Assembly (NCBI GenBank): GCA_963803825.1
Contig: CAWDOJ010000003.1
Span: forward strand, 151,724-215,723
Direction: 5' to 3'
Origin: an uncultured Verrucomicrobiae bacterium
GTDB taxonomy: Bacteria; Verrucomicrobiota; Verrucomicrobiia; Chthoniobacterales; JAATET01
Length of the DNA stretch: 64,000 nt
A program made the translations under genes and the position numbers. Every line of letters starts with the position of its first letter. Positions within the stretch are counted from its first letter, which is position 1. Shown here piece by piece: positions 5,019 to 57,157 of the stretch. A model generated the notes under the pieces. That model did not search any database, was not told where the DNA came from, and saw nothing but the letters and a program-made list of their open reading frames with translations.

Positions 5019-5090
5019 TCGCTCGGTGGTGGGATTTGGCCGGCCGGTAGCGCGGTTGACCTGGCTATCTTACTCTGGCCCGGCGCCCTA

Positions 5091-5688: not shown

Positions 5689-5694
5689 TGACGG

Positions 5695-7262: not shown

Positions 7263-7325
7263 TCGACCGCTCGTCGGGTTGACAACGGATTCACCGTGCC
7301 TCGACAGCTTTCCGCTCCGCCACTC

Positions 7326-15787: not shown

Positions 15788-15802
15788 ATGCTAGGTGCGG
15801 AC

Positions 15803-19770: not shown

Positions 19771-20310
19771 GTGGTGCCGTTGGACAAGGCGGGGGCGACC
19801 CCACTGAAGTCAAACTCGGAGGATGCGGGCGGGGATGTGGTCAACATTGATCGTTTCCGGAAGAAGTTGGCACTGATCGGCATCGATGTGCCGTTGCTGG
19901 CACTGGAAGACGTGAACTGGGTCGCTGAGCGTGCGGGCGCGATGGAGGTGATGGCCGACGCGAAAGGGTCGGGATCATCGGTGACTGGCGCCTGGGCGAT
20001 CTCCTTCGAGGCGCTCGAACGGCGGCTGCGGACTCGATCGGGTCGAAGTGGATCTGCGAGGATCAACCGAAGCTGGCGGCGTCACGCGCCGGTCACTGGG
20101 GTGCTGCTCGATTCCTTCCAGGGCAAGACGAATGCCGACGGGGAAGGTGCTATCTGGGATGAAATCTTCGGCGCCGGGGACGGCTCGCGAGGAAGATGGA
20201 TGACTTGTCTGCGATACGCGACGAAGCAGGACTGCGTGCCGATGTTTCATCGGCTGCGAGAGCGGCGGCAGCTCCGCGAGGTGATCGACGGGATCGAGTG
20301 GCTGAGGTAA
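19771..20310 (+). CDS. Hypothetical protein
   Basis: This frame has clearly G/C-biased third positions (checked codon by codon over 20101-20310) and ends in TAA. The sequence VVNIDRFRKKLALIGIDVPLLALEDVNWVAERAG... is non-repetitive. The 5' part is probably broken. Confidence 0.45.
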   Translation: MVPLDKAGATPLKSNSEDAGGDVVNIDRFRKKLALIGIDVPLLALEDVNWVAERAGAMEVMADAKGSGSSVTGAWAISFEALERRLRTRSGRSGSARINRSWRRHAPVTGVLLDSFQGKTNADGEGAIWDEIFGAGDGSRGRWMTCLRYATKQDCVPMFHRLRERRQLREVIDGIEWLR

Positions 20311-22703
20311 ACGGTCTTGGAGAGGACGGCGACCGGGTTGGGCGGTAGCGGGCGCCGGCAGCATCGGGGTGCTGGTAGGCCTGGTGGGCTGCGGCTTGAA
20401 GGGCCTCGGCGGCGGGCTGAGTCCAGGGGGCAGCGAGCGGGGTCGTCCGGATCGGGGCGCGCTGGATGTGCCGAAGTAAGGAGTGCGACTCGAGGGCGCG
20501 CGTTCGACGTCTCGCGGATCATCGCGTCGGCGGGGATGGAGCGGACGCCGCTGGCGCGGGTCTCGGCCAGTACGTCCCGGCTGGTGCCTTCGCCAAGGCG
20601 GGGCAGGCCGTTCGAGGTAACCCGCGGCCTCGACGTGGCCAAGGGCGCGGGCCTGGTGATCGCCGAGGCGGCGGCATTCGCCGGCGGCCAAGGTCGGCCA
20701 ATCGGTGGCCGCCTCGGAGATTCGCGAGGCGGGCAACGATCTCTTCGATGGGGTAGGTGTGTCTTCCAAGTGCGGCGGCGATGACGAGGCCTTCGCCGCT
20801 GGAAACGGGCGGCGATGCGGCCGTCGGCGGTCGGGACGCCAAGGGCGTCGATGAGGCCGAGCTTGCGCCAAGCGTGGGCGGGCGACGCTGGGGGGATTGA
20901 ATGCGGGGACTTCGGCGGTGGCCAGGTGGGTGTCCGGGTTGAGTTCGACGCGGCGGCGGGGCGGGGCGAGGAGTGCGCGGTCGTGCGGGTCCATGGTCGC
21001 TGCCCACGGGCTGGTCGCCGAGGCTCAGCTGAAGGGCGAGGATCTCGCCGCGTTGGGCGAGGCCGAGGACGGGGAGGTCGGTGAGGAGGGGCGCGACGGT
21101 GGTGAGAAATTCGGATTTGGTAAAGGTCTCGGCTTTGGTGAGGTGGAGCTTTTTGCGGACCCAGGGGAGGGGGCGGAGGCGGTTGTCTTCGGTGGGGTGG
21201 GCGGCACTCAATTCTTGCCGTAAACAAAGCCGGTGGGGGTGGAGATCTTACAAATTTGGCCCGGGCCGTGCGATTCGGCGACGGCTGGGACGCGGAGGGC
21301 GGGTTGCCATTTTTCCTTGTGAAAGGCGAGGCAGTCGGCGAGTGGGCGTGATCCGGTGCGGGCGTCTTTGGCGGGCTGCCAGGTGCCGGTGCTGTCGAGG
21401 TATTCTTCGCGGGTGGGGTTGAGGAAAGAGGGGGGGGCGTTTTGAGGAGGAGAGGGGGAGAGGGGTTCCAGTCCGAGAGTGGGAGCCTGGGGGCTGAAGA
21501 GATTGTTGGCAGGCTCGGCGGGCGGCTTCGAGGGGGTTGCGCCCTTGTTCGGCGGCGGTTTCCATGACGCGGAGGAGGCTGGGCCAATCGATCTCGTTGA
21601 CGCGGCGAAGGGGGCGCTGACTGGCATCGTAGAGGCGGGGGCCGTCGCGGGCGACGATGAGGGTGCCTTCGGTGTCGAGGCCACGGCGACCGGCGCGGCC
21701 ATACATTTGCAGGAGTTCGTCGGAGCGGAGTTCGCGCTGGATCGGACCGTCCTGGTAGCTGGTGCCGGCGATGGCGACGGAGCGGACGGAGAAATTGATG
21801 CCAGCGGCGAGGCCGGTGGTGGCGACGATGAAGTGGAGGTGGCCGTTCTTGGCGAGGGGTTCGATCCAGTGGGCGCGGGCGGCGTAGGGGAGGCCGCTGT
21901 GGTGGAAGGCGGTGCGGCGGGCGAGGAGGCGGGAGAGGTCCTTGCCGAGGAGGGTCTGAGCTTGGGCGGGATGGGGATGGCGTCCTGCAGGGGGAGGGCT
22001 TCGCTGAGGTGGCGGGCGATCTTTTCCGCGTCGGCGCGGCGGGGGGCGAAGATGAGCAGCGGGGTGAGGTGGGCGAGGTAGGCGGCGGCGGCGAGGCGGG
22101 GCCAGTAGCCTCGGACGGAGTCGGGGACGCGGGGGAGATTTTCTTGAGGGATCTCGTTGAGGGGGACGGGGCGGTCGGCGACGCGGATGATCTCAGTCGT
22201 GCGACCGAGGCGTTGGAACCAATCGGCGACGGCTGCGGGGTTGCGGACGCTGCCGCTGAGGAGGAGGAGTTGCGTGCGGTCGGGGGGCGCGAGGGCGAGG
22301 GCGAGTTCGTAGTTGAGGCCGCGGCGGGGGTCGGCGAGCATCTGGTATTCGTCGATGACGAGGGTGCCTGGGGCGTCGCCGGAAAGGATGCGCTCGCGTT
22401 GGGTTTCGAGGGTGGCGACGAGGATGGGGGCACGGGTGTTCTCGGCAAGATCGCCGGTGGCGATGCCGACGTCCCAGCCGCGGCGTTGCCACTCGGTCCA
22501 TTTGTCGTTGGCGAGGGCCGGGTCGGGACGGTGTAGACGGCTTGGCCGCGACGGGCGGCGGCTCCGGAGTCGACGTGGAGTTCGAAGACGCGCGTCTTAC
22601 CGGCACCGGTGGGGGCGTCGACGAGGACGTCGTGCCCGGCCATGAGGGCGCGGACGGCTTGCTGCTGCCAGAGGTCCGGGACGTCGAGGGCGATCTGGAG
22701 CAC
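20311..22703 (-). pseudogene. Superfamily-2 (Ski2/Lhr-like DExH-type) helicase, at least 3 frame breaks
   Basis: GTG start at 22703. Helicase motifs are collinear but spread across frames: motif I VDAPTGAGKT, motif II LVIDEYQ, FHHSGL, ATTGLAAGINFSVRSV and motif VI QMYGRAGRRGLD. The 3' end is uncertain. Confidence 0.75.
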
Positions 22704-22713
22704 GCTCGACGGT

Positions 22714-22746
22714 AATGAGAAATGGGGAATGCGAAATGAGAAATGG
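22714..22746. repeat. GAAATG micro-array (AATGAGAAATGG x2, 9-nt spacer)
   Basis: aatgagaaatgg ggaatgcga aatgagaaatgg lies directly upstream of the helicase start. Its unit resembles the GAAATGGGG unit of the composite repeats. Confidence 0.6.
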
Positions 22747-22838
22747 TTGGCGGCTTCGCCGGGAGAACGTGAGTGGCTTCACTGCTTGGGAAGCTTGAGG
22801 GTGTTGCGGCCAGGCAAAAACCTCCGCGCTCTTACCGC

Positions 22839-23108
22839 TCACCCGGTCAAATTCTGATAGACCTCCAAGAGCTGCCGCCGCTTCAGTTCTTCCCGAAGGC
22901 CATCGTGATCAATCAGGGTCGAGGAGATTTCGAGCATTCGCCGGATATCGCTAACGTGCTTCTCGCCGCCGCCCTCGGAGAAAAAGGTCACTTTCCAGAG
23001 GATGACGTATTCTGGTGACGCACAGTGGATCTCGGTGAGGGTTCGTCGATTCCGCCAAGCCCAGGCGAAAAACGCGTCGTTCTGAGAAGGGTAGAAGTCC
23101 GCCTCCAA
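22839..23108 (-). CDS. Small hypothetical protein
   Basis: ORF 22839..23153(-). The non-repetitive sequence FYPSQNDAFFAWAWRNRRTLTEIHCASPEYVILWKVTFF...RRQLLEVYQNLTG looks like real coding. The first ~15 codons of the tracked ORF are just a translated repeat, so a TTG near 23108 is a more plausible start. Confidence 0.4.
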   Translation of the reverse strand: MEADFYPSQNDAFFAWAWRNRRTLTEIHCASPEYVILWKVTFFSEGGGEKHVSDIRRMLEISSTLIDHDGLREELKRRQLLEVYQNLTG

Positions 23109-42226: not shown

Positions 42227-43138
42227 TCAGAATTCCCGCCAGACGGCGACCTTGAATCCGCCGCCGGCTCCGGTCGCTCGGCCGGCGATCTGCCAGTAGG
42301 GGCCGGCTTGGATGATCCAGTCGGTGATGGGTTCGACGAGCGCGGACGCGCCCACTTTGATCAGGTCGAAGTCGGTGGTGAGGAGGATGTTGTCGCCGAC
42401 GGATTGCGGCGTGTCGTTGCCGAGTCCGTGGATGCCGCTGGCTTCGAGGAAGTAAACGTCGAGCCAGTCGGTGAGTTCGATCCCGCCCGTGAAATACCAG
42501 CGAAGCTCGTCGGCGGGTTCGGCGGTCCGAAGCCGGTATCCGACGCCGACGTCGACGAAACCCCAGCGGCTGCCGAAGGGAAATGGGTGCCCGATGAAGT
42601 AGTCGAGCTCCACGTCGGTCTGGCCATTGCCGAGGGCCGGGGAGTCGTTCACGTCGTAGGGACCCGGGATCTTCACCATGAGCTGGAGGGCTTGGGGGAT
42701 TTTTTCCGAGAGCCGGTAGCGCAAGCCGATTTCCTGATCGGCGAGGCCGAAGTTTGTGTCGCGCCCGAATTCGTTCTCGAACGCTAGGCCATCGAGGAAG
42801 AAATTCCCGATGAGGGTCACGCCGTCGGTCAGCCCGTATTCCACGTAGAGGTTCCACTCGTTCTTCGTGAAGCGACCGTCGAAACCGAAGTCCTCGCGTT
42901 TCCAGCCGTCGCCGAATTGTTCGTCGGTCGTGTAGAAGTAATAGGCGAGGACGGCAAGTCCTTCGCCTTTCGGCTGGGTCCAGGCTCCGGCTTGGGAAGA
43001 TGCCGGGCTTGAAAGTAGCACCGAGACGGCGATCAACGACCGAATCCACCGACGGACGGAATTCCTCGTATCTCGGTGAAAAATGGGCGTTTGCCTTGCC
43101 ATGCGAGGGAGAAGAGTCATCATCCCGCCGGTTTGCAA
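42227..43138 (-). CDS. Outer-membrane beta-barrel protein (family not recognised)
   Basis: Intact ORF with signal peptide ...IAVSVLLSSPASSQA, alternating aromatic/hydrophilic strands and a C-terminal ...KVAVWREF. It is divergent from the 43.1-kb operon. Confidence 0.6.
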   Translation of the reverse strand: MQTGGMMTLLPRMARQTPIFHRDTRNSVRRWIRSLIAVSVLLSSPASSQAGAWTQPKGEGLAVLAYYFYTTDEQFGDGWKREDFGFDGRFTKNEWNLYVEYGLTDGVTLIGNFFLDGLAFENEFGRDTNFGLADQEIGLRYRLSEKIPQALQLMVKIPGPYDVNDSPALGNGQTDVELDYFIGHPFPFGSRWGFVDVGVGYRLRTAEPADELRWYFTGGIELTDWLDVYFLEASGIHGLGNDTPQSVGDNILLTTDFDLIKVGASALVEPITDWIIQAGPYWQIAGRATGAGGGFKVAVWREF

Positions 43139-44320
43139 GCACGGGCATTGTCGGTATTAGCTCAGTGTCGCGACACTGAGGATCACTTCGATCCGGTCGA
43201 GTCGTTGTGCCGGAGTTGTCTCTGCGACGGGCTGCCTTTGGAAGATATCGAATGGCTTGCGACCGAGGCGTCCCCGATCCGGCTGCAAACCAACGACGTT
43301 CTCTTCGACGATGACGACCGGATCGAGGCGCTGCACGTTGTCGTGCGGGGTGAATTGAGCCTCCTCGTCCGAGGCACCGCGGCGGGAGAATTCGCCGAAT
43401 GCGCGCGGCTCGACGCCGGTCAGTTCATCGGCGAAGGCGCGGTGATCGATTCGGAAGGCGATCGCACCCCGAAGGCGGTCCGGCGAGCGCGCATCGTCGC
43501 GAAGTGCGAGACGGTGGTGCTGCGAATTCCCGCCTCCGCTCTTCTGGCGCTGGTGGAGCGTCAGCCCCGGATCATGGTCCGGAATCTATTGAGCCATTCG
43601 GCGGAAAAAAATCGGCTCGCGTCCCGGGTGGTTCTCGAGGAGCGATTGGAGCGGGAGAGCGTCCAAATTTTTCAGGATCTGTCGCGTTGGTTGACGCGGG
43701 CGGTCGACGACGCCGCGACCGCGCTCCGGTTGAACGCGGAGCTTCTCCAAATCGAGAATTTTCCGGTGCGAATCGCCGCGACCGTGGACGATCTCGACGC
43801 CGCCGCCCGGGATCTGGCGACGACAATCGGCGCGCTCGGCCAGCTCGGCGGCGCGAATGCCGCGACGCCGACGCTCGAGCCGGTCCGCGTGCGGGATTGG
43901 TGGATCGAGCGTGAACCCGGCGTCCGGGCGCGACTTGCCGACCGTCGGATCGAGCTCGACGCCTACGTCGAAGACTGCGGACTCATGTCCTGCCCGGAGC
44001 TGCTCGGGGGCACCATCGTCGAACTGCTCGATGGCCTGGGACAATTACTGGGAAGGGATCGGGGGATCGAGCTGCGGGTGGGGAAGAGGTTTGGCGCCAT
44101 TGAATTTCGCTCGAGTCTGGCGACTCCGGGCCTCACGGAATACGCGGCCAAGCGGCTCTTCCGGCCCTTCGCGCTGGGCGAGGACGTAGCGCCCTTTCAG
44201 CTGTCGCTCGCGCGGCGCAACGCCCGGTTTCTGGGTGGTGACGCTACCGTCCAGCGCCGGGACGGCGACCGGCTCACGGTGCTTCTCAGCCTTCCAATCG
44301 CTCCCGCTCATGGCCGTTGA
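43076..44320 (+). CDS. Cyclic-nucleotide-binding domain protein with a degenerate histidine-kinase-like ATPase C-domain
   Basis: The CAP_ED pattern is LHVVVRGELSLLVRG...LDAGQFIGEGAVID...RRARIVAKCETVVLRIP. The C-terminus has an HATPase_c-like layout (IELRVGKRFGAIEFRSS...RLFRPFALGED...FQLSLARRNARFLGGDATVQRRDGDRLTVLLSLP), but the usual N, DxGxG and GxGLGL residues are replaced. The start is uncertain (43076-43205). Confidence 0.7.
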   Translation: MKNGRLPCHAREKSHHPAGLQARALSVLAQCRDTEDHFDPVESLCRSCLCDGLPLEDIEWLATEASPIRLQTNDVLFDDDDRIEALHVVVRGELSLLVRGTAAGEFAECARLDAGQFIGEGAVIDSEGDRTPKAVRRARIVAKCETVVLRIPASALLALVERQPRIMVRNLLSHSAEKNRLASRVVLEERLERESVQIFQDLSRWLTRAVDDAATALRLNAELLQIENFPVRIAATVDDLDAAARDLATTIGALGQLGGANAATPTLEPVRVRDWWIEREPGVRARLADRRIELDAYVEDCGLMSCPELLGGTIVELLDGLGQLLGRDRGIELRVGKRFGAIEFRSSLATPGLTEYAAKRLFRPFALGEDVAPFQLSLARRNARFLGGDATVQRRDGDRLTVLLSLPIAPAHGR

Positions 44321-44810
44321 GTTTACTCCCGCCGCCGCTGGGTGCCGGATTCTGATCGCCGAGAGCCACGAGCTCACGGCGCGCGCCATCGGTCGGACCC
44401 TCGAGTCTGCGGGTTTTCGGGTGGATCGGATCGCGGATGAAAGCGGTCTCGCGGATCTGAACGATTTCGACGCCTGTCTGATCGCGGGCCGACTCGGCAA
44501 CGAACCGGGCGCGACGGTGATCCGAGAGCTTCGGCAAAAAGGCGTCACCGCCCCAATCGTCGCGCTGGTGGGTTGGTCGGACTGGGCTGGCCGCGACGAG
44601 CTGATGAATTCCGGCGCCGATTCCGTCCTGATGAAGCCCTGCGGTGCTGCGGAGATGATCGGATTGCTCCAGCGGCTGCTCGAGCGCGCCCACCCGGAAG
44701 TCACGCGGGCGGAGGGATCCGGGTCGGTCCGTCCCGGCATCGCGATGCCCGTCTTGGTCACCGCTCTCATCGGCCTTGGGATCTCGCTCACGCTCTGGCT
44801 TCTCCAATGA
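44310..44810 (+). CDS. Receiver-domain protein lacking the phospho-acceptor Asp, with a C-terminal TM anchor (pseudo-receiver)
   Basis: The REC fold reads RILIAES...FDACLIAGRLGNEPG...IVALVGWS...VLMKP. By manual alignment to CheY, the DD pocket becomes AE, D57 becomes A, and K109 is kept. It ends in the TM helix PVLVTALIGLGISLTLWLL and overlaps the upstream stop by 11 nt. Confidence 0.75.
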   Translation: MAVEFTPAAAGCRILIAESHELTARAIGRTLESAGFRVDRIADESGLADLNDFDACLIAGRLGNEPGATVIRELRQKGVTAPIVALVGWSDWAGRDELMNSGADSVLMKPCGAAEMIGLLQRLLERAHPEVTRAEGSGSVRPGIAMPVLVTALIGLGISLTLWLLQ

Positions 44811-46763
44811 AAATCGTTCAGCTCCTTCTCACCGCCACCCTCGTTCATTCCGCGCTGGCGGTGCCGGTCGAGGTCGAGCGAAATCTGGCCGAAATGGGAT
44901 TCGTCCAGCCCGTGCGCCTCGCGGGCACGGAGGTCGAACGGGATTTCTTCTTTCCGCTGGCGAGTCGCGATTTTCTCGCGGAAGACTCCTCGTTTCGGGT
45001 GGTCGTCGAGCCGTCGCCGTTGCTGGATCCGAGTTCCGTGGTGACGATCCTGGTCAACGAGCGACCCGTCGCGACGCAAGTCGTCGGAGAGGGCGCGATG
45101 CCCCCGATCGCGGTGCCAATTCCGACGGAGGTCAAAGCGGACGACCCGACCAGCCAGGTGCTCAAACTCACCGTCCGGACCGCGCTCGCGCCGCGCGACG
45201 GCAATCCCGCTTCCGACGAAATCCTGCGCGCCACGGCTTGGGTCGACGTGCTGCCGACGACGACGTTCGTCTGCGCGGTCGAACCCACCGATCCCGATTG
45301 GCTGGCGGCCAGTCGTTTGCCGACGACGCTGGGGCCGCAGATCACGGTCCGTCTGCCGGACGGTGGTGAGTCGTTTGCGGCGGGGCTGGCGTTGCGCGCG
45401 GTGACGTGGGCGGCTTACGCCCAGCCGTTTGGGCGGGTGTCGGTGGCGAGCGATTTGCTGAAGGTCACCGATGAGATCGTGATCGACCCGCGGGCGACCG
45501 AGAAACCGGGAATCGCGGTGGCGGCTGGTCCGACGGGCCGGATCATCACGCTGTCCGCCGGCGATGACGAACAAGCCGACGCGGTGTGGAGGATGCTGCG
45601 CGATCTGGGGCGGTCGGGCCTGCCCGGCGAGCGTCTCGAGGCGTCGGCGGCTGCGGACGACGGGCGAGCTGCGGTGAGTCCGACGACGTTGCGGGGACTC
45701 GATCCGCGGATCGGCGAATTAAATCGCGGGCCCGGCGAGACCGAGCGGCGCTTCGCGTTCGTGCCCGCGAAGCTGAGCGGATCTTCGGGGCAACTGGAAC
45801 TCGCTCTCGCCGGGCGGGTCTCCGATCTGACCGGGGTGGGGCCGATCGTGGGGGCGGTTTTTCTGAACGATCGGATGGTTCATTCGGCGCGGCTCGACCC
45901 GGAGGCGCGGACGTTCCAATGGGCGGTGCCGTTTGCCGACCGAGCACCTGAAGGGGGAGAGCGAGGTGCGCGTCGCGATGTTTCCGACGGATCGAACCAA
46001 GCCCTACTTCTGGCAGCTCGAGGAGACCGCCTCCATCTCGGCGGTCGAGGGTGGCGGAGGCGTGGTCTTCGAGCCGTCGAGCCTGATCGAAGCGGCGCAG
46101 GGATCGTTCGTCGCTGGACCGTATGACGTGGTGTGGGGCGGTGGCGGAGGTTCGCTCGAAGTCGCCGCGTCGGTGGTGACGTGGCTGCAGCGGGTGAATC
46201 GCGCGACGCTCCTCGATCCGGTCGTAACCGGGAAGCCGGAGGGTCTCCGGCCCACGGTCTTGATTGCAACCGTGCCGGAGGGGATGAGCGACGTGGTGGC
46301 GACGTTGCCGATCGCGCCGGGAGCGGGATCGGTGAGCGTGCGTGACGGTGGGGGGCGCGAAGTCCTCCGCGTGGCCAGCGGGGAGAGTCTCGGTTACTGG
46401 CAGCTCGGATTTTCCGGCGGAGGGAAACCCGTCATCGTCGCCGGATCGTCTGGAACCAACGGGCCGGAAGCCTTGGCGGCGGTGTCGGGGCAGATCGCCG
46501 GAGCGCGGTGGATCGAGGCGGGTGACGTGGTGATGGGGGATGGTCGTGGCCCGGTCCTGACGGTGAGCACCCGGGAACGAAAGCTGGCGGAAGTGCCCGC
46601 GTCGGTCGCTGCGGTGGGGAGTCTCGAGGTGGTGGCGGCTGGCCCGGGCTCGGTGACGGGGGATTGGCGACGTTGGCGCTGGTGGTCGATCGGCGCGCTC
46701 TGGTTGGCCCTCTCGGGCACGGTTTTCTTCGTCTACAAACAAGGGCGTCAGCACGCCCGTTAG
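44807..46763 (+). CDS. BcsB-like periplasmic synthase subunit with a C-terminal TM anchor; single frame break near 45932
   Basis: ATGA overlap with the upstream stop and signal peptide MKIVQLLLTATLVHSALA. It has the pattern LAEMGFVQPVRLAGTEVERDFFFPL...SSFRVVVEPSPLLDPSSVVTILVNERPV, which I associate with BcsB. ORF 45933..46763 continues the protein (QWAVP|LPTEHLKGESEVRV) after an extra T in a TTT run. The terminal helix is WWSIGALWLALSGTVFFVY. Confidence 0.55.
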
Positions 46764-46772
46764 CCACCCGCG

Positions 46773-48632
46773 ATGCGCGTCGTCAATCACCTCCACGAGC
46801 AGGGTCTCCTCGGGATCGCGGGACGTCGGCGGGTCGAGCAGGCGGCGGCGAGCTGGGGTGTCGAGGCGGATCCGTTGCTGCGGACCTTCGCGTTGGTGAG
46901 TCCCGCGACCTACCTGCGGGCTTACGAGGACGTTCACGAGGTGGAGCGGCACGCGGCGGAAACGCTCCGGCTGGACGGAGATCGATCTGCGGCCATCCCG
47001 TGGGAGCTGTGGCGCGATCATCAGGCGTTGCCGGTCGTCACGTCGGCGGGTGCGGCCACCACCGCAGCCGTCGATCCCGCCCGGTTGCCGCCCTCGCTCC
47101 GGCCCGCGACGGCGCGACCCTGCCTGCTGCTCGAGGAGGAGTGGGTCGAATTGGTCACGCGCTTTCGCGGCGGGGATTTCCTGGACGAAGCCGTGCACGG
47201 TCTGTCGCGGGCGCAGCCGGGCGCGTCGGCCCGGCGGACCTTCACGCCGCCGCAGCTGGGATTCATCTGGGCGGTTGGGTCGGCGATTCTCGGCGGACTT
47301 CTCGCCGCGCCCGTCGCGACGATCATCGTCGTGAATTGCGTCCTCAACCTCTTCTACACGCTCTGCGTGGGGTTTAAAACGCTGCTCGTCTTCGTGGGTT
47401 CGACGCGGACGGTGTCGCACAAGGTCTCGCCGCTGGAACTCGACGCGATCGATCCCGCGCGGCTCCCGATCTATTCGATTCTCGTCCCGGTTTTCCGCGA
47501 GCCGCTGGTGATCTCCGGCCTCGTCCGGCAGCTCTCGTCGCTCAACTACCCGCTCGCCAAGCTGGACGTGAACATTCTGCTCGAGGAGGGCGACGACGAA
47601 ACGATCAACGCCGTGCGGGCGATCAATCCGCCGCCGAATTTTCACACCATCATCGTCCCGCACGCCACGCCCAAGACGAAGCCGAAGGCGTGCAACTTCG
47701 GGATGTTTTTCGTTCGCGGGAAATACACCGCTATCTACGACGCGGAGGATTTCCCCGAGCCCGATCAATTGGAAAAAGTCGTCGTTTCCTTCGGCAAACT
47801 CGCCGACCACGTCGTCTGCATCCAGGGCTGTCTCAACTATTTCAATTGGCGCGAGAACCTGCTCACGCGCCTCTTCACGCTCGAATACACGAGTTGGTTC
47901 GACTACAATCTTCCCGGCATGGAGGCGCTGCGGATCCCGATCCCGCTCGGGGGCACCAGCAATCATTTCAAGACCGACCGACTGCGGGAACTCGGCGCGT
48001 GGGACCCCTACAACGTGACCGAGGACGCCGACCTGGGCGTCCGCGCCAGCGCCCGCGGCTACACGGTGGCGACGATCGATTCGACGACGTTCGAGGAGGC
48101 GAATTGCCACGCCGGCAATTGGATCCGGCAGCGATCGCGTTGGATCAAGGGTTACATGCAGACCTTCCTCGTCCACACGCGGCACCCGTCCCGGATCATC
48201 GGGCGCATCGGGTGGCGGGGGTTCGTCGGGTTCGTTCTCTTCATCGGCGGGACTCCGTTCACGTTTCTGGTGAATCCGATCCTCTGGCTCATCGTGATCG
48301 CGTGGGCGCTCACGCGGTCGCCGCTCATCGACGCGATTTTCCCGCCCTGGCTGCTCACGCTCTCGATCACGAATCTCGTGATCGGAAACCTGATGGCGAT
48401 CTACGCCTGCGTGCTGGCCGTCTTCCGGCGGGGGCGGCACGCGCTGAGTCCCTACGCGCTGCTCAATCCGCTCTACTGGATGATGCACGCCATCGCGGCC
48501 TACAAGGGACTCTGGCAGCTGATCGTGAATCCCTTCTACTGGGAAAAAACCGACCACGGACTGTCGTCCATGACCGGTGGACTCCCCGCCGCCGCCGTCG
48601 GCACCGCCAATCCGAACACCGCCGATGCGTAG
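46773..48632 (+). CDS. Processive family-2 glycosyltransferase (BcsA/PgaC-like synthase) with a GspE_N/MshEN-like N-terminal domain and no PilZ domain
   Basis: Intact 619-aa ORF. The first ~100 residues follow a T2SSE_N-like pattern (...EQGLLGIAG...LVSPATYLRAYEDV...IPWELWRDHQALPVV). Two TM helices precede the GT2 core (ILVPVFRE, PKTKPKACNFG, YDAEDFPEPDQL, TEDADLGVR, QRSRWIKG which is the QxxRW motif), and about four TM helices follow. The protein ends about 30 aa after the last helix. Confidence 0.85.
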   Translation: MRVVNHLHEQGLLGIAGRRRVEQAAASWGVEADPLLRTFALVSPATYLRAYEDVHEVERHAAETLRLDGDRSAAIPWELWRDHQALPVVTSAGAATTAAVDPARLPPSLRPATARPCLLLEEEWVELVTRFRGGDFLDEAVHGLSRAQPGASARRTFTPPQLGFIWAVGSAILGGLLAAPVATIIVVNCVLNLFYTLCVGFKTLLVFVGSTRTVSHKVSPLELDAIDPARLPIYSILVPVFREPLVISGLVRQLSSLNYPLAKLDVNILLEEGDDETINAVRAINPPPNFHTIIVPHATPKTKPKACNFGMFFVRGKYTAIYDAEDFPEPDQLEKVVVSFGKLADHVVCIQGCLNYFNWRENLLTRLFTLEYTSWFDYNLPGMEALRIPIPLGGTSNHFKTDRLRELGAWDPYNVTEDADLGVRASARGYTVATIDSTTFEEANCHAGNWIRQRSRWIKGYMQTFLVHTRHPSRIIGRIGWRGFVGFVLFIGGTPFTFLVNPILWLIVIAWALTRSPLIDAIFPPWLLTLSITNLVIGNLMAIYACVLAVFRRGRHALSPYALLNPLYWMMHAIAAYKGLWQLIVNPFYWEKTDHGLSSMTGGLPAAAVGTANPNTADA

Positions 48633-50207
48633 GCTGTCCCTGCCCCTCGTCGCGCTCGTGGTCGGCGGGCTGACCGCCGCGCTGCTCGCGACCGGGCAGG
48701 CGCTCGCGGCGTGGTGCGGCTTCCTGACGACCGAGGGCGCGCTCATTTCCGCGCGAGCGATCCTCGCCGCGCGGGGCGATCTTTTGACGATCGCGAGCCT
48801 GGGCATTCCGCAGCCGCCGCTGCCCTTCCTCGCCGCGATCCCGTTCGCCGCCTGCCGCTTGCCGAATCCGGCGCTGTGGGTGTCCGCGCTGGCGGGTGGG
48901 CTGCTCGTCGGGTGGCTGCTCTATTCGTATCGGGGGATCGTTGTCCGGCACCCGGCTCTGGCGTTGCTGCTCCTCCTGGTCCCGGCGCTGCCCGGGGTGT
49001 TTCACAGTTCGGTGACCGGGACGGCCACCGTGACGGGTTTCCTGCTGCTGGTCGTCGCGATTCAGCTCGCCGCGCGGTTCGCCATCGAGCAGCAGAACTT
49101 GCGGGAGGCTCGCCGGGCGGGGCGGCTCTCCGCGTGGGTCGATCCGGATCGCGAGCAGGCGCACGCCATTCGCTTCCTGTGGGCGGCCGCGCTCGCGCTG
49201 GGGCTCGCGTCGCTCGCCACGCCCGGACTCGGGGTCGCGCTCCCGCTTTTCCTCCTCGCGACGCCGCTCCTCCTGCCGCCCGGCGAACGGCGGAACGTCG
49301 GCAAGATCATCACCATCGCGCTGTTGCTGTTTCTGCCGATGGTCACCGTGCAAGCGCTCGTTCAGGGACTGGGCTGGGCCTTCGGCGGGGGCTGGCCAGG
49401 CTTGCTGCCGCCTTCGTCCGGGTCGCTCGTTGGGTGGGTCGATGGCGGGACGGGGGAGGGTCGGGGTGGTCGCTTCGGTCGCCGCTCGCCGCCGCCGCGC
49501 ACGTCTCGACGGGATTGCTGATCGCGGGTCCCGTGCTGATCTACGTCGTGATCCGGCTGCGCAACGCGGCGGTCGCGCTGCTGTGCGCGATCCCGTTCGT
49601 GGTGGAGTTTTTATTCGTGTGGGACGGCGGCAGCGCGCTCGCGCGGGACGGGCGGTCGCTGGCGACGGTGCTGGGGATTTCGTTGGTTCTGCTCGGGGCT
49701 CAGCTCGGCCGCTTTCGGCAGCGGGAATTCACCGCGTTGACCGCCGCGACGATCCTCGTCGCCGTCGTCGGGTGGATCCAACTCGCGGATTCGCCGCGGC
49801 CCGAGGAACGGGTATTCGCCCGGCTGGCGCGCGGCGAAGACGTCACCACTTTCGCCGATGAACGTCGGCTGGTGGAGCGCATCGGCGCGGACCCGACGGC
49901 GCGGACGGTCCTGCTCGACGATGCGGCGGGGTTTGCTCTCATTGCGCTGCTCGGCGACTGCTCGCGGTTCGTGCTGCCGCACGAGGCGCGGTTTCGGTTT
50001 TCGCTGGAAAATCCGCAGCGCTGCGCGTCCCACGCGCTCCTCCGGCGGTCGGGGATCGGGGGGAGGCCGGAACTGGTCTCCAGCGCTTGGATCTCGCTTG
50101 GTGCTGACAAACGGGCGTTCTTCCGCCCAGAATTCGAGGCGGGCCGGTGGCGGTTGCTTGCCAACTCGCCGCCGGTGACCGACACCGTCGCTGCCGCCAA
50201 TCGATGA
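48625..50207 (+). CDS. Polytopic membrane protein with a soluble C-terminal domain (unknown family); frame break near 49.40-49.46 kb
   Basis: The ATG at 48625 overlaps the GT2 stop. ORF 48577..49521 (multi-TM) and the tail of ORF 48711..50207 (more TM helices, then ...ERVFARLARGEDVTTFADERRLVERIG...) read as one protein after a -1 shift. Confidence 0.6.
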
Positions 50208-51262
50208 CCGCGTTCTTTGCCATGATTTCCCTCGCCGCATTTTCGGTTGGCCAAATCCCGCCCGTCGGGCCGGATTTTCAACCCCGCTTTCAGCGGGGCG
50301 TCGTCTTCGCGCACAACCACAGCGTCGAGCGCGGCTACGGCGGCGAAATGGCGGCGCGGTCGCTCGAGGAACTCAAAACGCTCGGTGTCGACAGCGTCAC
50401 GATCATTCCGCTCGGCTACAGCTTCAACGTCGAGGATCCGCGGATCTTTGGATACACGGGCGAGGATCTCACGATGACCCCCGACAGCATCCGGCGGATG
50501 ATCCGGTCGGCGCACGCGGCGGGTCTCGCCGTGACGCTGGCCCCGCAGATCTGGATCGGGATGTATGGCGCGCGTGGGGATTGGCGGGGCGACGTGCGGA
50601 TGAAGAACGGCGCCGATTGGGAGAAATGGTTCGCGGGTTACACCGGGTTCATTCTGTTCTGGGCGAGGATGGCGCAGGAGGAAGGGGTGGAACTCTTCAG
50701 CGTCGGGAGCGAGATGCGGACCGCCACGGAACTCCGCCCGGCGGACTGGCGGCGGGTCATTCTCGACGTGCGGGGCGTCTACAAGGGTCCCTGCACCTAC
50801 TCGGCGAATTGGGCGGACGAGATCGACTTCATCGAGTTCTGGGACCTGCTCGAATACATCGGCGTTTCGTTTTATTTTCCGATCGGAGGCGGGACGCTCG
50901 AGGAGCGTCTCGTGGAAGCGGCCAAGGCGCGGGACCACGTGGCGGAGGTGGCGACTCGTTTCAACAAGCCGGTGCTTTTTCTGGAAGCCGGGTTCCGCAG
51001 CATCCCGGGCGCGGGTCTCAAGCCGCACTCGTGGCGCGACGACCTGCCGCCGCCGGTCGATCTCGAAGAGCAGCGGGTGAGTTTTGAAGTTCTGTTCCGA
51101 ACTTTTTGGGATCAGGGATGGTTCTACGGCTTCTACTGGTGGCATTGGTTCTCAGACCTCGATTACCACCCGCAGCCTCCGACCGACTTCCAATTCCGCG
51201 ACAAACCCGCTGCGGACGTCCTGCGGAAATTTTACACCCGACCCAACCCACGCCAGCCATGA
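50204..51262 (+). CDS. TIM-barrel glycoside hydrolase (clan GH-A-like)
   Basis: ATGA overlap with the upstream stop and signal-like MTAFFAMISLAAFSVG. Candidate catalytic acid/base is ELFSVGSEM and candidate nucleophile is VLFLEAGFRS. The C-terminus is aromatic-rich. Confidence 0.7.
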   Translation: MTAFFAMISLAAFSVGQIPPVGPDFQPRFQRGVVFAHNHSVERGYGGEMAARSLEELKTLGVDSVTIIPLGYSFNVEDPRIFGYTGEDLTMTPDSIRRMIRSAHAAGLAVTLAPQIWIGMYGARGDWRGDVRMKNGADWEKWFAGYTGFILFWARMAQEEGVELFSVGSEMRTATELRPADWRRVILDVRGVYKGPCTYSANWADEIDFIEFWDLLEYIGVSFYFPIGGGTLEERLVEAAKARDHVAEVATRFNKPVLFLEAGFRSIPGAGLKPHSWRDDLPPPVDLEEQRVSFEVLFRTFWDQGWFYGFYWWHWFSDLDYHPQPPTDFQFRDKPAADVLRKFYTRPNPRQP

Positions 51263-54200
51263 GAACGTTCCTCGCAATCCTAGCCCTCGCCGCGACGGCG
51301 AGCGCCCAGACGACGGCGAATTTTCTCGGGGGACCGGGTGATTTCAGCGATCCGCTAAATTGGGACACGAATCCGGTCTATCCCAACAACGGCCAACCGG
51401 GTGCCGCAGACACCTACGCCGCGACCATCGCCGGCGGCGACGTGACGCTCGACGTCGACGTGACGCTCGACTCGCTGAACTTCGTCGGGGCATCCCTGCT
51501 CTCGAACGGGACCAGAACGATCACGGCGGCAACGACGCTCGGCAATGGGGCGGTCTTCGCGGGAGGCGTCACGCGACTGAGTGGTTCGGCGGCGCTTTCG
51601 GGTGGGGCGAGCGCGGCGTTTGTGAACGTCGTGGGTGGCGCGGAAGTGGCCAATCTCGGTTCGTTCACGCACACGCAGGGTGGGGCGACCGACACGGGGA
51701 TCATTCTCAATTCGGACGGACTCGGCGGCGGATCGACCTTCCGCAATGCGTCGACGGGGACGTTCACGGCGGCCACGACGACGGCGGGGGCGAGCGTGGG
51801 CTTCGGCCTGGCGGACGCGGGTAATCAGTTTGTGAACGCCGGCGTGTTCGTGAAATCCGGCACGGCGGATTACGACGTGAACGTGGCGTTCGTGAATTCG
51901 GGGACCTCGCAGGTGCAGGCCGGAACGCTCAAGCTGAACGCGGGCGACGGTGGCTCGACGACGGGTTCGCAGACGGTCGCCGGGACGCTGGCGCTGAGTG
52001 GCGGGTTCGACTTTGCCTCGGGGTCCGGGGTGGCGGGCGGGGGGAGGCTCACGAACAACAGCGGGACGACGACCTTCGCGGCGGGCAGCGATCTCTCGGT
52101 CTCGACGCTGGAACTGGTCAGCGGCAACGTCGTCGTCGAGAGCGGCGCGACATTTGGCTCATCGAATCTGGCGGTAAACGGCGGGACGCTCACGAGCAAT
52201 GTCGACCACACCTTCTCGAACTCGACGTTCACCAACGGCGGGTCGGTGCTCGGCTCGGGCGACGTGACGTTCGCGACCGCGGTGACGTTCGACGGGTCGA
52301 CCTACACGTTCGGCGGGACGGGGACGAAGACGTTCGCGACGGACGTGAACTTTTCGACCACGTCGACGGATCAATACTTCAACGTGAACGGCGGCACGGA
52401 GGTCGTGAACTCCGCGCAATTCACGCAGGCCCGGCTCGGCAGCGGCGAAAGCGCGATCGTGCTGAACGCGGACGAGGCCGGCGGCGGGTCGGTTTTCCGG
52501 AACACGGGGACGTTCATCGCGAACGCGAGCGGCGGCGTGGCGAGCATCGGGAGCGCGGCACCCGATGCCGGAAATCAATTTTTGAACGAGGGGACTTTTC
52601 AGAAATTCGGATCGAACGATTATTCAGCCAACGTTGCGTTCGTGAACTCCGGCCAGCTCGAGTTGCTTCAGGGGACGATGAATTTGACCGCCGGCGACGG
52701 CGGTGCGACGACCGGAGCGGCGTCGATCTCGGGTGGCGCGGTGTTGGGATTGAGTGGTGGACACACGTTTGCTGCGGATTCGAGCGTGGCTGGCGGAGGG
52801 GCACTGCGGGTGAACGGGGGCGCGGTGACGTTCGCCTCCGGGTCGACGCTTTTGTCGGGCGGATTGGAACTCGTGAGCGGGACGACGACGTTCGATTCCG
52901 GGAGCTTCATTGGGAGCGGGACCGCGTTGGCGGTCAAGGGCGGCACGCTCGTGGCCGATATCGCGCAGACGTTCACCGGCACGACCTTCGCAAACGGCGG
53001 GACGGTCGCCGGGTCGGGCGCGGTCGAATTCGCCGGAACCACGGTATTCGACGGGGCGAGTTACACGTTTGGCGGGACGGGCGGGAAGACGTTCAACGGC
53101 AATACGGCGATCTCGGCCGGAGCGACGGAACAATTTTTCAACGTGAACGGCGGGACGACCGTGACAAACCTCGGGACGTTCACGCAGACGAAGACGGGCG
53201 TGGGCGCAAGCGTGATCGTGCTGAACGCCGACAACGCCGGGGGCGTCTCGCAATTCGTGAACGGGCCGGTGGAAACTTCACGGCGAACGTCCTCAACGGC
53301 GAAGCGAGCGTCGGTTTTGCCACGGCGACGGCGGGGAACGTTTTCATCAACAATGGGACGTTCACTAAGTCCGGATCGGGAATCTACGCGGCGAACGTGG
53401 CGTTTCGAAACAACGCCGACGTCTCCGTGCAGCAGGGAACGTTGGATCTCAACGCGGGTGACGGCGGGGCGACGGGCGGGACTTATGGTCTGGGCAATGG
53501 CACGACGCTCGGGCTCAGCGGATCGTTCGTGTTCGGAAGCGGCTCCTCGGTCGAGGGGGCGGGCACGTTGCTGGTGAAAAGCGGCGTCACGACGTTTGGT
53601 TCCGGGAGTTCGCTCGGCAACCAGACGCTGCGCCTATTGAGCGGCACGACGATCCTGGCCGCCGGAAGCACGCTGGGGTCGGTCGCCCTGCAGGCGGCCG
53701 GCGGGACCCTGCAACTCGACATCGCGCACACGTTCCAGGGCGCGGCGTTTTCCAATGGCGGCATCGTCACCGGGAGCGGGGCGGCGACCTTCGCGGGGAC
53801 GACGACGTTCGACGGGAGCAGCCCGACGCTCGGCGGATTCGGGGCGAAGGTGTTCACGGGTTCCGCGACGCTGGAGTCGGGTGACACGGATCAATTTTTC
53901 AACGTCAACGGCGGGACCAAGGTGCAGAGCAACGGGACGTTCACCCAGCGGCGGCTCGGGCCGGGCGACAGCCAGATCGTGCTCAACGCGGATGGCTCGG
54001 GCGGCTCGTCACGCTTCACGAATGGGGGCACGTTCACCGCAGACGTGCGGGTGGGATCGGCGGGCATCGGGTTCGGCGATTCCGTCGGAGACATCACGTT
54101 CGACAACTCGGGCCAATTCATCAAAACGGGGAGCGGCGATTACAACGCGAACGTGATCTTCCGTAACGGGGGGAATGTGGACGTGCAGCAGGGCCTCCTC

Positions 54201-56071
54201 AATCTCAACGCGGGGAGTGGTAGCGCGGTCGTCTTCGGGGACTTCGCTGTCGCGAGCGGAGCGACGTTCGGGCTGGCCGGGACGAATTCGTTCGCGTCGA
54301 CGGTCGGGTTCACCGGGGGCGGGTCGGTGGTCGTGCTTGGCGGGACGACGAACTTCGCGTCGGGGAGTTCGTTCGCGTCGGGGGTGCTCGAGTTGCGGGG
54401 CGGGACGACGACCTTCGACGCGGGCAGCGCGATCGGCGCGACGGCGTTGCGGATCGCGGGCGGGACGCTCGAGTCCAATATCGCGAAGACCTTCACGGGC
54501 ACGGCATTCACGAGCGGCGGCTTGGTCACCGGGTCGGGGGCCACGACCTTCGCCGGGACGACTTCGTTCGACGGGGCGAGCTACACGTTCGGCGGAAGCG
54601 GGACAAAAACGTTCAGCGGCACGACCGTCATCGCGGCAGGCGCGACGGACCAGTTCATCAACGTCAACGGCGGGGCGGAGGTCGTGAACACCGGGAGTTT
54701 CACCCAAAGGCGCGCTGGAGCCGGGCTGAGTAGTTTGGTGCTGAATTCCGACGGGGCGGGGGGATCGACTTTTCGCAACGCGAGCTTCTTCACCGCCGAC
54801 GTGTCGTCCGGCCTGGCGACGGTCGGGTTCGCGAGCACGAATGTCGGTAGCCGGTTCGTCAACGAAGGCATCCTGAACAAGACGGGCGCGGGCCTGTATC
54901 AAGTGAACGTCGTGCTGGAAAATACCGGGACGGCCATCGTCGGAGCCGGGACGCTGGCGGCGACGGCGGGGATCACGGGGAACGGGACGGTCGACATCAA
55001 CGCGAACGCCGTCCTCGATCTCTCGGAAAACATTCACACCAGCGCCGTCGGTCAGCTCAAACACAGTGGGGCCAATCTCGCGCTCGGCTCGAACGACGTT
55101 GTCGTATCGAGCGACTACACGAACGAAAATTTCGGTGTTGGGAACGGCTTCAATCGCCGTTCGAACGTCACCGGCACCGGACAAATTCTGGCGGGTGGCG
55201 ACGCGACGCTCGCGGCGACGGGCGACGTGGCGGGCGGCGGGCGGGCGGCGTGGCGGGCGGCGTGATCGCGTTCGGCACGGTCCACGTCGGCGAGGTGATC
55301 TCAAAATCCTACACGCTGGCAAATCCTGGGACGAGTGGCCCCGCGATCCGCGGCGCGCTGCAGACGTCCGTGAACGGCGGCAACCTCACGGACTCGCGGC
55401 TGACCGGGAGCGGGGTGACGGCGGGGAATCTCGGCCCGGTCGCGACGGGCGGGTCGAGCGGGTCGCTGGGCGTGACGTTGACCGCGTCGACCGCCGGGGC
55501 GCTCACGGGGCAGTCGATTCACGTCGCGACAAATTTCGACAACGTGGCTCCCATCGATCTCGCGATCACCGGGGCGGTGAACTTTTTCGCCGAGCCCGTG
55601 CTGACGAAGGTGTCCGGGGACGCGGTTTTCACGATGGATTCGGCGACGGGCTACACGATCGACTTCGGCACGATCGACCTGGCGGACAGCGTACGCTCGA
55701 TCAACCTGGCGCTGGAGAATCTCCTGAGGGACCCCGTTTTCCAGGACGCGCTTGGCGGCACCTTCGACCTGTCGGGACTCACGGCGTTCGACGCGACGGG
55801 ATTCGCCGCTTTCGTCGGGCTCGCGAGCGGCGGCGAGCGGACGGGCTACGGCGTGGAGATCGACCCCGGCTTGCTCGGCAACGGCGTCTACGTGGAGTCG
55901 CTCTTCTACGATCCGACGAGCGCGAACGGATCGGGAACGTCCAGTCTTAGCCAGATCGAGCTGGCGTTCCGCGCGACGGTCGTGCCGGAGCCGTCGACGG
56001 TTGCGCTGCTCGTGATCGCGCTCAGCTTGTTCGCCTGGACCGCGCGCCGCCGAGTTTCCACCCGCCAATGA
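51259..56071 (+). CDS. Giant (~1600 aa) secreted PEP-CTERM protein with five ~253-aa Gly/Thr/Asn-rich tandem repeats; two frame breaks (near 53271 and 55240)
   Basis: ATGA overlap with the upstream stop and signal peptide MRTFLAILALAATASA. Repeat starts F(V/F/I)NV(V/N)GG lie near 51617, 52378, 53135, 53893 and 54655. ORFs 51106..53577, 53397..55265 and 55250..56071 are collinear (frames 1, 0, 2). The C-terminus VPEPSTVALLVIALSLFAWTARRR is a PEP-CTERM sorting signal. Confidence 0.8.
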
Positions 56072-57157
56072 GCGCGGCCAGAGCGAGGAGGCACCAAATT
56101 CGCGGCTCGGGGATGGGGTTGAGGTGGTCCTCGAGGATGGCGAGCTGCGGGCGACCGCTCGCCGCATTGTCGGCGACGGAGAACGAATATTCGGCCGGCC
56201 ACTCACCGGCCGACCAGTAGGTCCAGCCCTGCCAGACGTCCTGATTCGCGTCGACGTAATCCAGCATGTTGTCCAGCGCGGCGAGCTGCGGTGCCCCGGA
56301 CGAGACGCCAAATTCTCCGAGGAATCCGCGGGCGTTGTTGGCTCGCGCCCAGTTGGTGAAGTCCACGAGCCGCTCCGCGCCGATGGTCTCGCTGACGATG
56401 CTGTTCGAGGTGCCCGACGAATCCGCGTCGAGGTATTGGTGCACCTCGTAGGCAAAATTGTTGATGCTGTCGACGACGCCACCCATCACCAGCGCGTTCG
56501 GGGTGCCGTAGAAATTCACCCGGTGGATTCGTCCAACTCCACGCGCCGGTAAAGCCATTGCCGGGAACGAGGATGAGATTTTCCGCGCCGGTGCCGCGAA
56601 TCGCGGCGATGGCGGAGTTTGCGGAAGTCAACCATTCCTCGGTCGTCGCCCCGCCGAAATTGACGCCCTTCGGCTCGTTCATCAGGCCGAAGATCACTTT
56701 GTCGTTGGCTTTGTAATGGTCCGCGAGGCGCGTCCAGAGATCGGAAAAGTGCGCGTCCGTCACGGGTGATCCCATCTGGCCGATGACGTCGCCGTAGTAG
56801 GTGCCGAAATTGTGGACGTCCAGAATGACGTTCGCGCCCACCGCCGTCGCGAAGTTGACGAAATTATCGAGCCGGCCGAGTTCGGTGGAGTCGAGCGCGA
56901 GACCGGTCGACGTCTGGATCCGCTCCCAGCGAAAGGGGAGGCGGATGGTGTTGAACCCCCTGCTGACGAAGTCGATGATGTCGCTCGACCCCGGGTAGGA
57001 GTAGTCGGTCGGCACCGACCCCGGCAGATTGCCCGTCGCCGAATTCCGCCCCGGAGAGATTGACGCCGAAGTATTCCAACTGCGCCCGGGCTTCGCTCGC
57101 GCCGAGCCCGATCAGGCTGGCACCGAAAACTGCCGCTCTTCGCCAATCGGTCAACAC
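56022..57157 (-). CDS. GH5 endoglucanase (cellulase family) with a PEP-CTERM anchor; two frame breaks
   Basis: GTG at 57157 and signal peptide ...AAVFGASLIGLGASEARA. GH5 motifs: GFNTIRLPFRWERIQ, VILDVHNFG, IFGLMNEP (acid/base E), AYEVHQYLD and GFLGEFG (nucleophile E). The C-terminus IPEPRIWCLLALAALIGGWKLGGARSRR is a PEP-CTERM signal. Frame breaks lie near 57037 and 56535. Confidence 0.8.

Follow-up and report, generated by a model that had tools for sequence, protein, structure and literature searches.

The xagABCD cluster of Xanthomonas (Tao, Swarup and Zhang 2010, as cited in PMC3528676 and PMC3609779) is needed for biofilm and exopolysaccharide (EPS) formation, the genetic evidence coming from Xanthomonas only (PMC3609779, PMC3528676), and its polymer is still termed 'uncharacterised' (PMC3528676). 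A 'bcsB-xagBCD' cluster described in stalk-forming iron oxidisers (Kato 2015, PMC4643136) was renamed sfz1-6/sfb1-4 by Koeksoy 2021 (PMC8250860). The xag/sfz family is very widespread, is tied to Xanthomonas biofilms and has been proposed for the stalks of iron oxidisers. The locus analyzed here is a run of seven genes (g1 to g7) with two flanking genes in a stretch of 64,000 nucleotides (the window; positions 151,724 to 215,723 of contig CAWDOJ010000003.1, assembly GCA_963803825.1) from an uncultured Verrucomicrobiae bacterium. Judged from its sequence, this locus is probably the Chthoniobacterales (Verrucomicrobiota) version of the xag/sfz synthase-dependent EPS machine, and it extends the xag/sfz family to Verrucomicrobiota.

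The original prediction, made from the DNA sequence without database searches, proposed a synthase-dependent polysaccharide system, and this functional class is supported by the combination of a processive GT2, a BcsB-family partner and a dedicated hydrolase. Its statement that no characterised system matches the genes has to be withdrawn, since the locus belongs to the xag/sfz family, with 50% identity to XagB, 47% identity to Sfz2 and the same gene order; the match is to a described EPS operon, although the xag polymer itself is chemically uncharacterised. The locus is not a categorically new secretion system. What sets this clade apart is the pair of regulators, an XagB without MshEN motifs, the giant PEP-CTERM protein and the presence of GH113 and GH5 together.

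Synthase core and conserved gene order

The product of g4 (46773..48632, plus strand) is an XagB-type processive GT2 with an N-terminal GspE_N/MshEN-like domain. It has 50% identity over 480 aa to XagB of X. arboricola (E 1e-160; 713 bits with the family profile) and 47% identity to Sfz2 of Mariprofundus (E 6e-134), matches PF13632 and PF13641 at ~64 bits, and carries the catalytic motifs DAED (residue 323), TED (416) and QRSRW (453). The MshEN/GspE_N match in Pfam is weak (15.7 bits against 23.1) but relatives of g4 do match MshEN, and there is no PilZ match at E<=0.1 in Pfam. The best NCBIfam match is the NfrB-related model NF011305 (E 7e-10), and a sequence search of the PDB with g4 finds only an unrelated GT2 (6YV7).

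Upstream of the synthase gene, g3 (44807..46763, plus strand) encodes a BcsB-family, Sfz1-like periplasmic protein with a signal peptide and a C-terminal hydrophobic anchor, the stretch WWSIGALWLALSGTVFFVY being visible there but unflagged by a crude hydropathy scan. The window copy scores 19.6-20.4 bits with the BcsB profile (PF03170), just under the cut-off of 21, but all 15 of the 15 family members match PF03170 (best E 6e-27) and the g3 family profile finds Sfz1 with E 2e-39. The gene is a single intact open reading frame (ORF) in four relatives (L001, L002, L081, L082). Downstream of the synthase gene, g5 (48625..50207, plus strand) encodes an XagC/Sfz3-like membrane protein that is polytopic by transmembrane (TM) scan and that fits XagC in position and size. 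The g5 family profile finds Sfz3 (E 2e-41) and X. arboricola XagC (E 6e-7), and Sfz3 matches XagC with E 3e-13; the homology of g5 to XagC is transitive through Sfz3 and is weaker than that of the other xag genes. Searches of g5 against Pfam and NCBIfam give no match. An AlphaFold2 model of P0208, an intact g5 homologue (80% identical), has a mean confidence (pLDDT) of 63, and its five best Foldseek matches are all GT-C-type folds (AglB, AftA, PIG-U, ALG3) with weak E-values, so that a GT-C-like fold of XagC is a lead, not a result. The assignment is weakened by the low model confidence, by Foldseek E-values of 0.01 or more, by PMT_2 matches in only 2 of the 45 members of the g5 family, and by a PDB search with the XagC family profile that gave no significant match.

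These three genes belong to an arrangement of seven consecutive plus-strand coding regions (43076-56071) with strong periodicity of G+C content at third codon positions (GC3). The junctions are tight: g1 and g2 overlap by 11 nt, g2 and g3 share ATGA, g3 and g4 are separated by a gap of 9 nt, g4 and g5 overlap by 8 nt, and both g5/g6 and g6/g7 share ATGA. The original prediction of seven coupled genes is borne out, all junctions being overlapping or close, and its domain calls are upheld by profile searches (Pfam, NCBIfam, profiles of relatives): a cyclic mononucleotide (cNMP) sensor with a dead kinase-like domain, a TM-anchored pseudo-receiver, a BcsB-like subunit (sub-threshold in the window copy, confirmed through the family), a processive GT2 with a GspE_N-like N-terminus and no PilZ domain, a large polytopic membrane protein, a TIM-barrel glycosidase (a GH113 enzyme, PF22612) and a PEP-CTERM protein (PF07589 and TIGR02595 above cut-off). 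The conserved unit is larger than seven genes, adding a divergent XagA-like gene and a convergent GH5 gene. The closest named relatives, with 81-82% identity, are proteins from Chthoniobacterales metagenome-assembled genomes.

The xag/sfz family comprises ~8000 proteins at E<=1e-30. When one genome per species was scanned, 560 loci with g4 relatives were confirmed, of which the 80 best were kept for the counts given here. With iterated profiles seeded from the window, a BcsB-like gene is found in 76 of the 80, a g5-like gene in 73, and the order g3-g4-g5 in 60, spanning Bacteroidota, Cyanobacteriota, Synergistota, Aquificota, Deltaproteobacteria and others; with tblastn of the window proteins against the same loci, the GT2 alone is found outside Chthoniobacterales, and g3 and g5 required the iterated profiles. 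The full block of divergent XagA, g1, g2, BcsB, XagB, XagC, GH113, giant PEP-CTERM protein and convergent GH5 is present in L081, L082 and L083, and the block as far as GH113 in L085 and L088, while the flanking genes vary between genomes. Co-occurrence in other genomes, proposed at the outset as a check, is therefore found both for the block and for the triad. The X. arboricola locus (L086), which was fetched through an XagA homologue, has the order XagA-like (343 aa), MshEN+GT2 (635 aa), membrane protein (462 aa) and GH113 (322 aa), which is xagABCD, and the Sfz1-4 sequences were taken from the supplement of PMC8250860. Some GT2 homologues are annotated as 'glycosyltransferase XagB' and an upstream homologue as 'protein XagA' (JGI, NCBI).

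The gene upstream of g1 and divergent from it (42227..43138, minus strand; true start probably near 43102) encodes an outer-membrane (OM) beta-barrel that has 36% identity over its full length to X. arboricola XagA (E 2e-40) and 44% identity to a JGI protein annotated 'protein XagA'; protein P0151 (291 aa) is 100% identical to it. Its AlphaFold2 model (pLDDT 89.8) consists of a signal helix followed by an all-beta barrel, which in Foldseek is most similar to the COG4313 OM channel 4RL8 (E 1e-9) and to the FapF secretion channel. The original prediction noted the absence of a BcsC-type porin with tetratricopeptide repeats (TPR); no porin of that type is present, but a candidate OM channel is encoded directly upstream. 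On the model, XagA is most likely the 'missing porin', an export channel that is not of the BcsC/PgaA type. Against this, the channel role is drawn from fold and synteny, and a barrel of ~12 strands is smaller than known EPS porins. Of the 80 loci, 15 contain XagA-like genes, often placed between the bcsB-like gene and xagB, as in L005, L018, L052, L011, L029, L053, L061, L066 and L079; in L006, L009 and L034 they lie nearby on the minus strand. Taxa with XagA-like barrels in the cluster include Pedobacter, Fibrisoma, Synergistaceae, Aquificota, Deltaproteobacteria and thermophilic cyanobacteria, and in the loci named Mucilaginibacter there is no XagA-like gene within 10 kb. In L081, the public gene call at 5447-7531 is an antisense ORF of 694 aa, without a Pfam match, that runs across the XagA gene and antisense to the g1 gene; by tblastn, XagA is at 5450-6358 and the g1 orthologue on the opposite strand at 6299-7531. 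The 694-aa ORF is a mis-annotation typical of high-GC DNA.

The last gene of the run, g7 (51259..56071, plus strand), encodes a secreted protein of ~1604 aa with a signal peptide, ~5 repeats of ~253 aa rich in G/T/A/S/N, and a PEP-CTERM anchor (PF07589, 26.0 bits against 20.7; TIGR02595, 23.2 against 16), with a C-terminus ...VVPEPSTVALLVIALSLFAWTARRR... that combines a PEP motif, a TM helix and a basic tail. The spacing of F[FI]NVNGG, which recurs at 626, 880 and 1133 by scan and more loosely at ~120 and ~373 by eye, gives the repeat period; a self-BLAST of g7 printed no off-diagonal matches, and the body of the protein has no Pfam or NCBIfam match. The orthologues in L082 and L083 are single ORFs of 1838-1873 aa, 48% identical, that end in VVPEP followed by a TM helix and a basic tail. 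At their 3' ends, g7 and the convergent GH5 gene share ~50 nt (56022-56071 in the window, 19228-19277 in L081, 20007-20057 in L082), and conservation of this overlap in relatives leaves no space for an intervening terminator. An Rfam scan of the whole window gave no match, and a scan for promoters and terminators gave results not above shuffled expectation.

It might be proposed that the seven genes are not one system, and that g1/g2, the giant PEP-CTERM protein or both are chance neighbours or have another function. In L084 no g7 follows the GH113 gene; L001 and L002 are without the minus-to-plus continuation; in L002 g1 and g2 were not seen within 1.2 kb upstream, a stretch that is partly masked; and g7 does not appear to be homologous to Sfz6, which lies outside the comparison set and was read by composition. 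However, homologues of g1 down to 26% identity adjoin XagA and response regulator/BcsB genes in 7 of the 7 contexts seen; the g1 family is rare, with only 13 cluster representatives at E<=1e-10 in a library of 1.84 billion proteins; and the g6/g7 ATGA and the ~50-nt GH5 overlap are kept in L081 and L082/L083 despite differing flanks. A chance assembly of neighbours is quite improbable in comparison with a single xag/sfz-type system.

Polymer, regulation and proposed working

The g6 gene (50204..51262, plus strand) encodes an XagD/Sfz4-like glycoside hydrolase with a signal peptide, assigned to GH113 (PF22612; 190 bits against 27, E 5.7e-56). It has 28% identity to XagD (E 9e-30) and matches Sfz4 with E 2e-34, and its two candidate catalytic Glu residues (in VGSEM and FLEAG) both align with Glu of Sfz4 and XagD. 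Its solved relatives are all endo-beta-1,4-mannanases (best E 3e-38). The convergent GH5 gene (56022..57157, minus strand; Pfam Cellulase on two ORF pieces) encodes an endoglucanase-type hydrolase for which the nearest solved relatives are endo-beta-1,4-glucanases (E 1e-85), and it is intact, 365-377 aa long and in the same position in L081, L082 and L083. In other phyla, 41 loci have a GH5 gene linked to the triad, for example a divergent one in L025 (5252-6394, minus strand), and the GH5 enzymes are of glucanase or glucanase/mannanase types. Cyanobacterial clusters contain a MannoseP_isomer/cupin gene that is ManC-like (L009, 6460-7068). The clade-2 GH113 enzymes of Xanthomonas are endo-mannanases with glucomannan as the best substrate (PMC9032380), and the biofilm of Xanthomonas campestris pathovar campestris requires the xag cluster and is dispersed by beta-1,4-mannanase (PMC3528676). 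Because of the GH113 specificity, the Xanthomonas mannanase data, the ManC-like neighbour and the GH5 types, there is about an even chance that the polymer is a beta-1,4-linked mannan or glucomannan. With hydrolase specificity, the ManC-like neighbour and dispersal by mannanase as its grounds, a bacterial beta-mannan/glucomannan synthase becomes a testable hypothesis.

Three considerations weigh against this assignment: it draws on hydrolase families and Xanthomonas phenotypes for a family whose product is chemically undefined; the Xanthomonas GH113 enzymes assayed in PMC9032380 are unconfirmed as XagD; and a BcsB partner with an endoglucanase-type GH5 fits a glucan equally well. Glucan is a serious rival, and in its fullest form the locus would be a divergent cellulose (beta-1,4-glucan) system consisting of a BcsA-like GT2, BcsB and an endoglucanase, with GH113 incidental. 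The BcsB-family partner in the cluster, the adjacent GH5 with its closest similarity to endo-beta-1,4-glucanases, the linkage of GH5 to the triad in other phyla, and the label 'cellulose synthase/PNAG synthase-like' (poly-N-acetylglucosamine) that JGI gives to many homologues all favour such a system. Against it, g4 scores 37 bits with the CelA model TIGR03030 (cut-off 699) and 25.7 bits with NF008558 (cut-off 992), and PilZ, BcsC and GH8 BcsZ domains are not found in the cluster. In addition, the in-operon GH113, a family with known activity on beta-mannans only, is kept in Xanthomonas, in iron oxidisers and in the clade of the window, and X. arboricola has a separate canonical bcs operon beside xag. 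A divergent cellulose system is thus an unlikely explanation next to a xag/sfz machine with a mannan or glucomannan product. The canonical bcs operon of X. arboricola (Cellsynth_D, BcsA with PilZ, BcsB) is at 16789-21032 of L086, ~1.5 kb downstream of xagABCD.

Two genes at the head of the run encode putative regulators. The g1 product (43076..44320, plus strand; start codon uncertain, homologues being 345-405 aa long) has a cNMP-binding domain (Pfam cNMP_binding, 40.6 bits against a cut-off of 27.5, E 2.6e-10) and a pseudokinase domain that resembles the dimerization/histidine-phosphotransfer (DHp) and catalytic (CA) domains of histidine kinases. Some homologues have a weak HATPase_c match. 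In an alignment of four homologues, no His is conserved across the DHp-like region, and each of the four has degenerate G1/G2 boxes. The g2 product (44310..44810, plus strand) is a receiver domain (Response_reg, 43.2 bits against 30.2, E 5e-11) with a C-terminal TM helix at residues 140-166. Compared with CheY, D12/D13 are replaced by E/S, D57 by A and T87 by V, with K109 kept, so that the domain is a pseudo-receiver in the window genome. With no conserved His in g1 and Ala in place of Asp57 in g2, the residues of a two-component phosphorelay are missing from both proteins. The phospho-acceptor Asp is also Ala in the g2 homologue of L081, of which the product is truncated and without the acidic-pair positions, and the more distant homologue in L085 retains all five signature residues. 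Outside Verrucomicrobiota, a homologous ORF family is found directly upstream of the bcsB-like gene in 57 loci, and the one member scanned (L055, 6034-7392) has HisKA and HATPase_c; a histidine-kinase-type ORF family in this position implies that the system has long been accompanied by a regulator of this kind. Comparison with related loci shows that BcsB, XagA, a GH113 or GH5 hydrolase and a regulator of kinase type recur as accessories, and the pair of cNMP-binding pseudokinase and pseudo-receiver is a rare module specific to the xag-type cluster.

Neither g4 of the window nor any of the 26 homologues closest to it contains the 24-residue c-di-GMP (cyclic di-GMP) motif of MshEN, which occurs twice in Sfz2 and at least once in 33 of 94 homologues that are more distant. 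Motif loss in XagB together with the presence of g1 and g2 agrees with a replacement of c-di-GMP as the input by a cNMP-sensing pair apparently incapable of phosphotransfer. By homology, XagB is an inner-membrane processive GT2 that polymerizes and translocates the chain, with the g3 product as its tail-anchored, BcsB-family periplasmic partner, XagC as a conserved polytopic partner, perhaps with a GT-C-like fold, and XagA as a small OM beta-barrel and presumed export channel. The dedicated hydrolases, which trim or release the polymer, are XagD (g6, GH113) and the convergent GH5. The c-di-GMP input that other family members receive through MshEN in XagB/Sfz2 is presumed to be lost in this clade, control passing to g1, a cyclic-nucleotide-binding pseudokinase without autophosphorylation, and g2, a membrane-tethered (pseudo)receiver, which would act on the synthase by protein contacts and not by phosphotransfer. 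The g7 protein, being co-transcribed, may be a surface-anchored matrix or adhesin component that is deployed with the polymer. Two observations speak against this account: in the alignment, the phosphate-binding cassette of g1 has an insertion and is without the canonical R-[ST]-A, and among ~45 ORFs of the window scanned with Pfam there is no exosortase match.

A more ambitious picture, which is doubtful as a whole, is that after loss of the c-di-GMP motifs the cNMP-binding pseudokinase and the tail-anchored pseudo-receiver gate a processive (gluco)mannan synthase by protein contacts in the membrane, and that the polymer is deployed together with an exosortase-sorted giant beta-solenoid protein. 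If the picture is true, the locus would encode the first synthase-dependent EPS machine gated by a cNMP and offer a natural case of a two-component pair fossilized into an allosteric switch.

Frame changes and the rest of the window

In the window, g3, g5 and g7 are each spread over two or three reading frames, with four frame changes in the operon: at ~45932 (45930-45935) in g3, between 49420 and 49465 in g5, and at ~53265 and ~55241 in g7. The original prediction read through all four without reporting that these genes are split. Its descriptions of a protein of ~1600 aa and of a BcsB-like subunit with a C-terminal anchor are correct after frame correction, but not as single ORFs of the window. 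When proteins of L081, a syntenic relative with 82% nucleotide identity over 15 kb, are mapped onto the window, eight frame changes appear across 23 kb (35700-58700), those outside the operon being in metX (~36044), in mgtE (~57735) and in the GH5 gene (~56510 and ~57030), which indicates that the assembly is generally prone to indels. In L081, the genes for g3, g5, GH5, MetX and MgtE are all intact; the g7 orthologue is one ORF in L082 and L083 and is split in L081 at another position than in the window. The g5 shift and both g7 shifts sit in G-rich runs, and the GC3 coding signal is undiminished across every shift. Because metX, mgtE and the GH5 gene nearby are also broken and are intact in L081, indel errors of the assembly, and not pseudogenization, are the most likely cause of the four frameshifts in g3, g5 and g7.

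The opposite explanation is that the copy is decaying and non-functional, the frameshifts being genuine and the operon undergoing pseudogenization in the host organism. Four frame changes fall inside the 13 kb of the operon, the phospho-acceptor Asp of the receiver has been lost in the lineage of the window, and the frameshifts are in the public assembly record, which carries a truncated 298-aa g5 product (P0211), a fact that counts against assembly error as well as for decay. The housekeeping neighbours metX and mgtE nevertheless show a similar density of frame changes, and the window at 5-23 kb is still more broken than the operon. The GC3 signal is unbroken across the shifts, in-frame stops and deletions are not accumulating, and the different site of the shift in the L081 orthologue of g7 is as predicted by random sequencing errors in a G-rich repeat gene. 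Decay is improbable on this evidence, and assembly error is preferred. Programmed frameshifting was also considered and is ruled out, since shifts occur in unrelated housekeeping genes as well and are missing from relatives.

Elsewhere in the window, ~5000-23000 has no long intact ORFs but only fragments, including a DEAD-box-type helicase (20.2-22.7 kb, minus strand), a Gnd-like fragment (~11.7 kb) and BY-kinase/Wza-like fragments (8.4-9.9 kb), and the GC skew of the plus strand is unusually high (0.2-0.33) over 10-24 kb. The stretch at ~5-23 kb could be one of very low quality or a sequence oddity. A separate polysaccharide locus of the Wzx/Wzy type is located within 1-10000, with Wzy_C/O-antigen-ligase-like genes (2-1618, minus strand; 3798-5018, plus strand), a Polysacc_synt flippase (2367-3173) and a Poly_export (Wza-like) fragment (9476-9940).

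Comparison with the Nfr, Bcs, sfz and xag systems

In the NfrB-NfrA-YbcH system of E. coli (PMC8669469, PMC8669472), a c-di-GMP-activated GT2, like g4, is joined to a domain of the MshEN type. This domain lies at the C-terminus of NfrB but at the N-terminus of g4, NfrA is a large OM protein of TPR type, and the Nfr system has no BcsB, XagC or GH113. Orthology of g4 to NfrB is rejected on the basis of 23% identity and the different domain order. With the Bcs cellulose system the locus shares a processive GT2 (D, DxD, TED, QxxRW), a tail-anchored periplasmic partner of the BcsB family, a dedicated endo-hydrolase and an OM channel. It differs in that PilZ is absent, the hydrolases are GH113 and GH5 instead of GH8, the OM barrel is of ~290 aa and without TPR, and XagC is an extra partner; in a Pfam scan of the cluster, neither a BcsC TPR and beta-barrel porin nor a GH8 BcsZ domain is found.

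The sfz/sfb clusters of Zeta- and Betaproteobacteria have the same order of BcsB-like Sfz1, T2SS-E_N+GT2 Sfz2, membrane protein Sfz3 and a glycosidase of ~330 aa, Sfz4, and as with g7 in the window, a very large protein, Sfz6, is encoded further downstream. Read by eye from the supplementary sequence and outside the comparison set, Sfz6 has an SH3-like/CotH-like composition unlike that of g7, and Sfz5 has no BLAST match to XagA or g7 better than E ~1. Sfz2 has two canonical MshEN motifs whereas g4 of the window has none, a cNMP/response-regulator pair or PEP-CTERM signal is not reported for sfz, and the proposed sfz product is a stalk matrix. All four proteins of the Xanthomonas xagABCD cluster (XagA, XagB, XagC, XagD) have homologues in the window, in the same B-C-D order, and chemical characterization of the polymer is lacking for both. 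The Xanthomonas operon has no BcsB-like gene and its xagA is co-directional, whereas xagA of the window is divergent; its regulation is transcriptional (Clp/c-di-GMP and diffusible signal factor), and its XagB keeps the MshEN match in Pfam. The synthase of the window locus lacks the MshEN motifs, and the locus has in addition to the xag genes a BcsB-family gene, a cNMP-binding pseudokinase, a tail-anchored pseudo-receiver, the PEP-CTERM giant and GH5.

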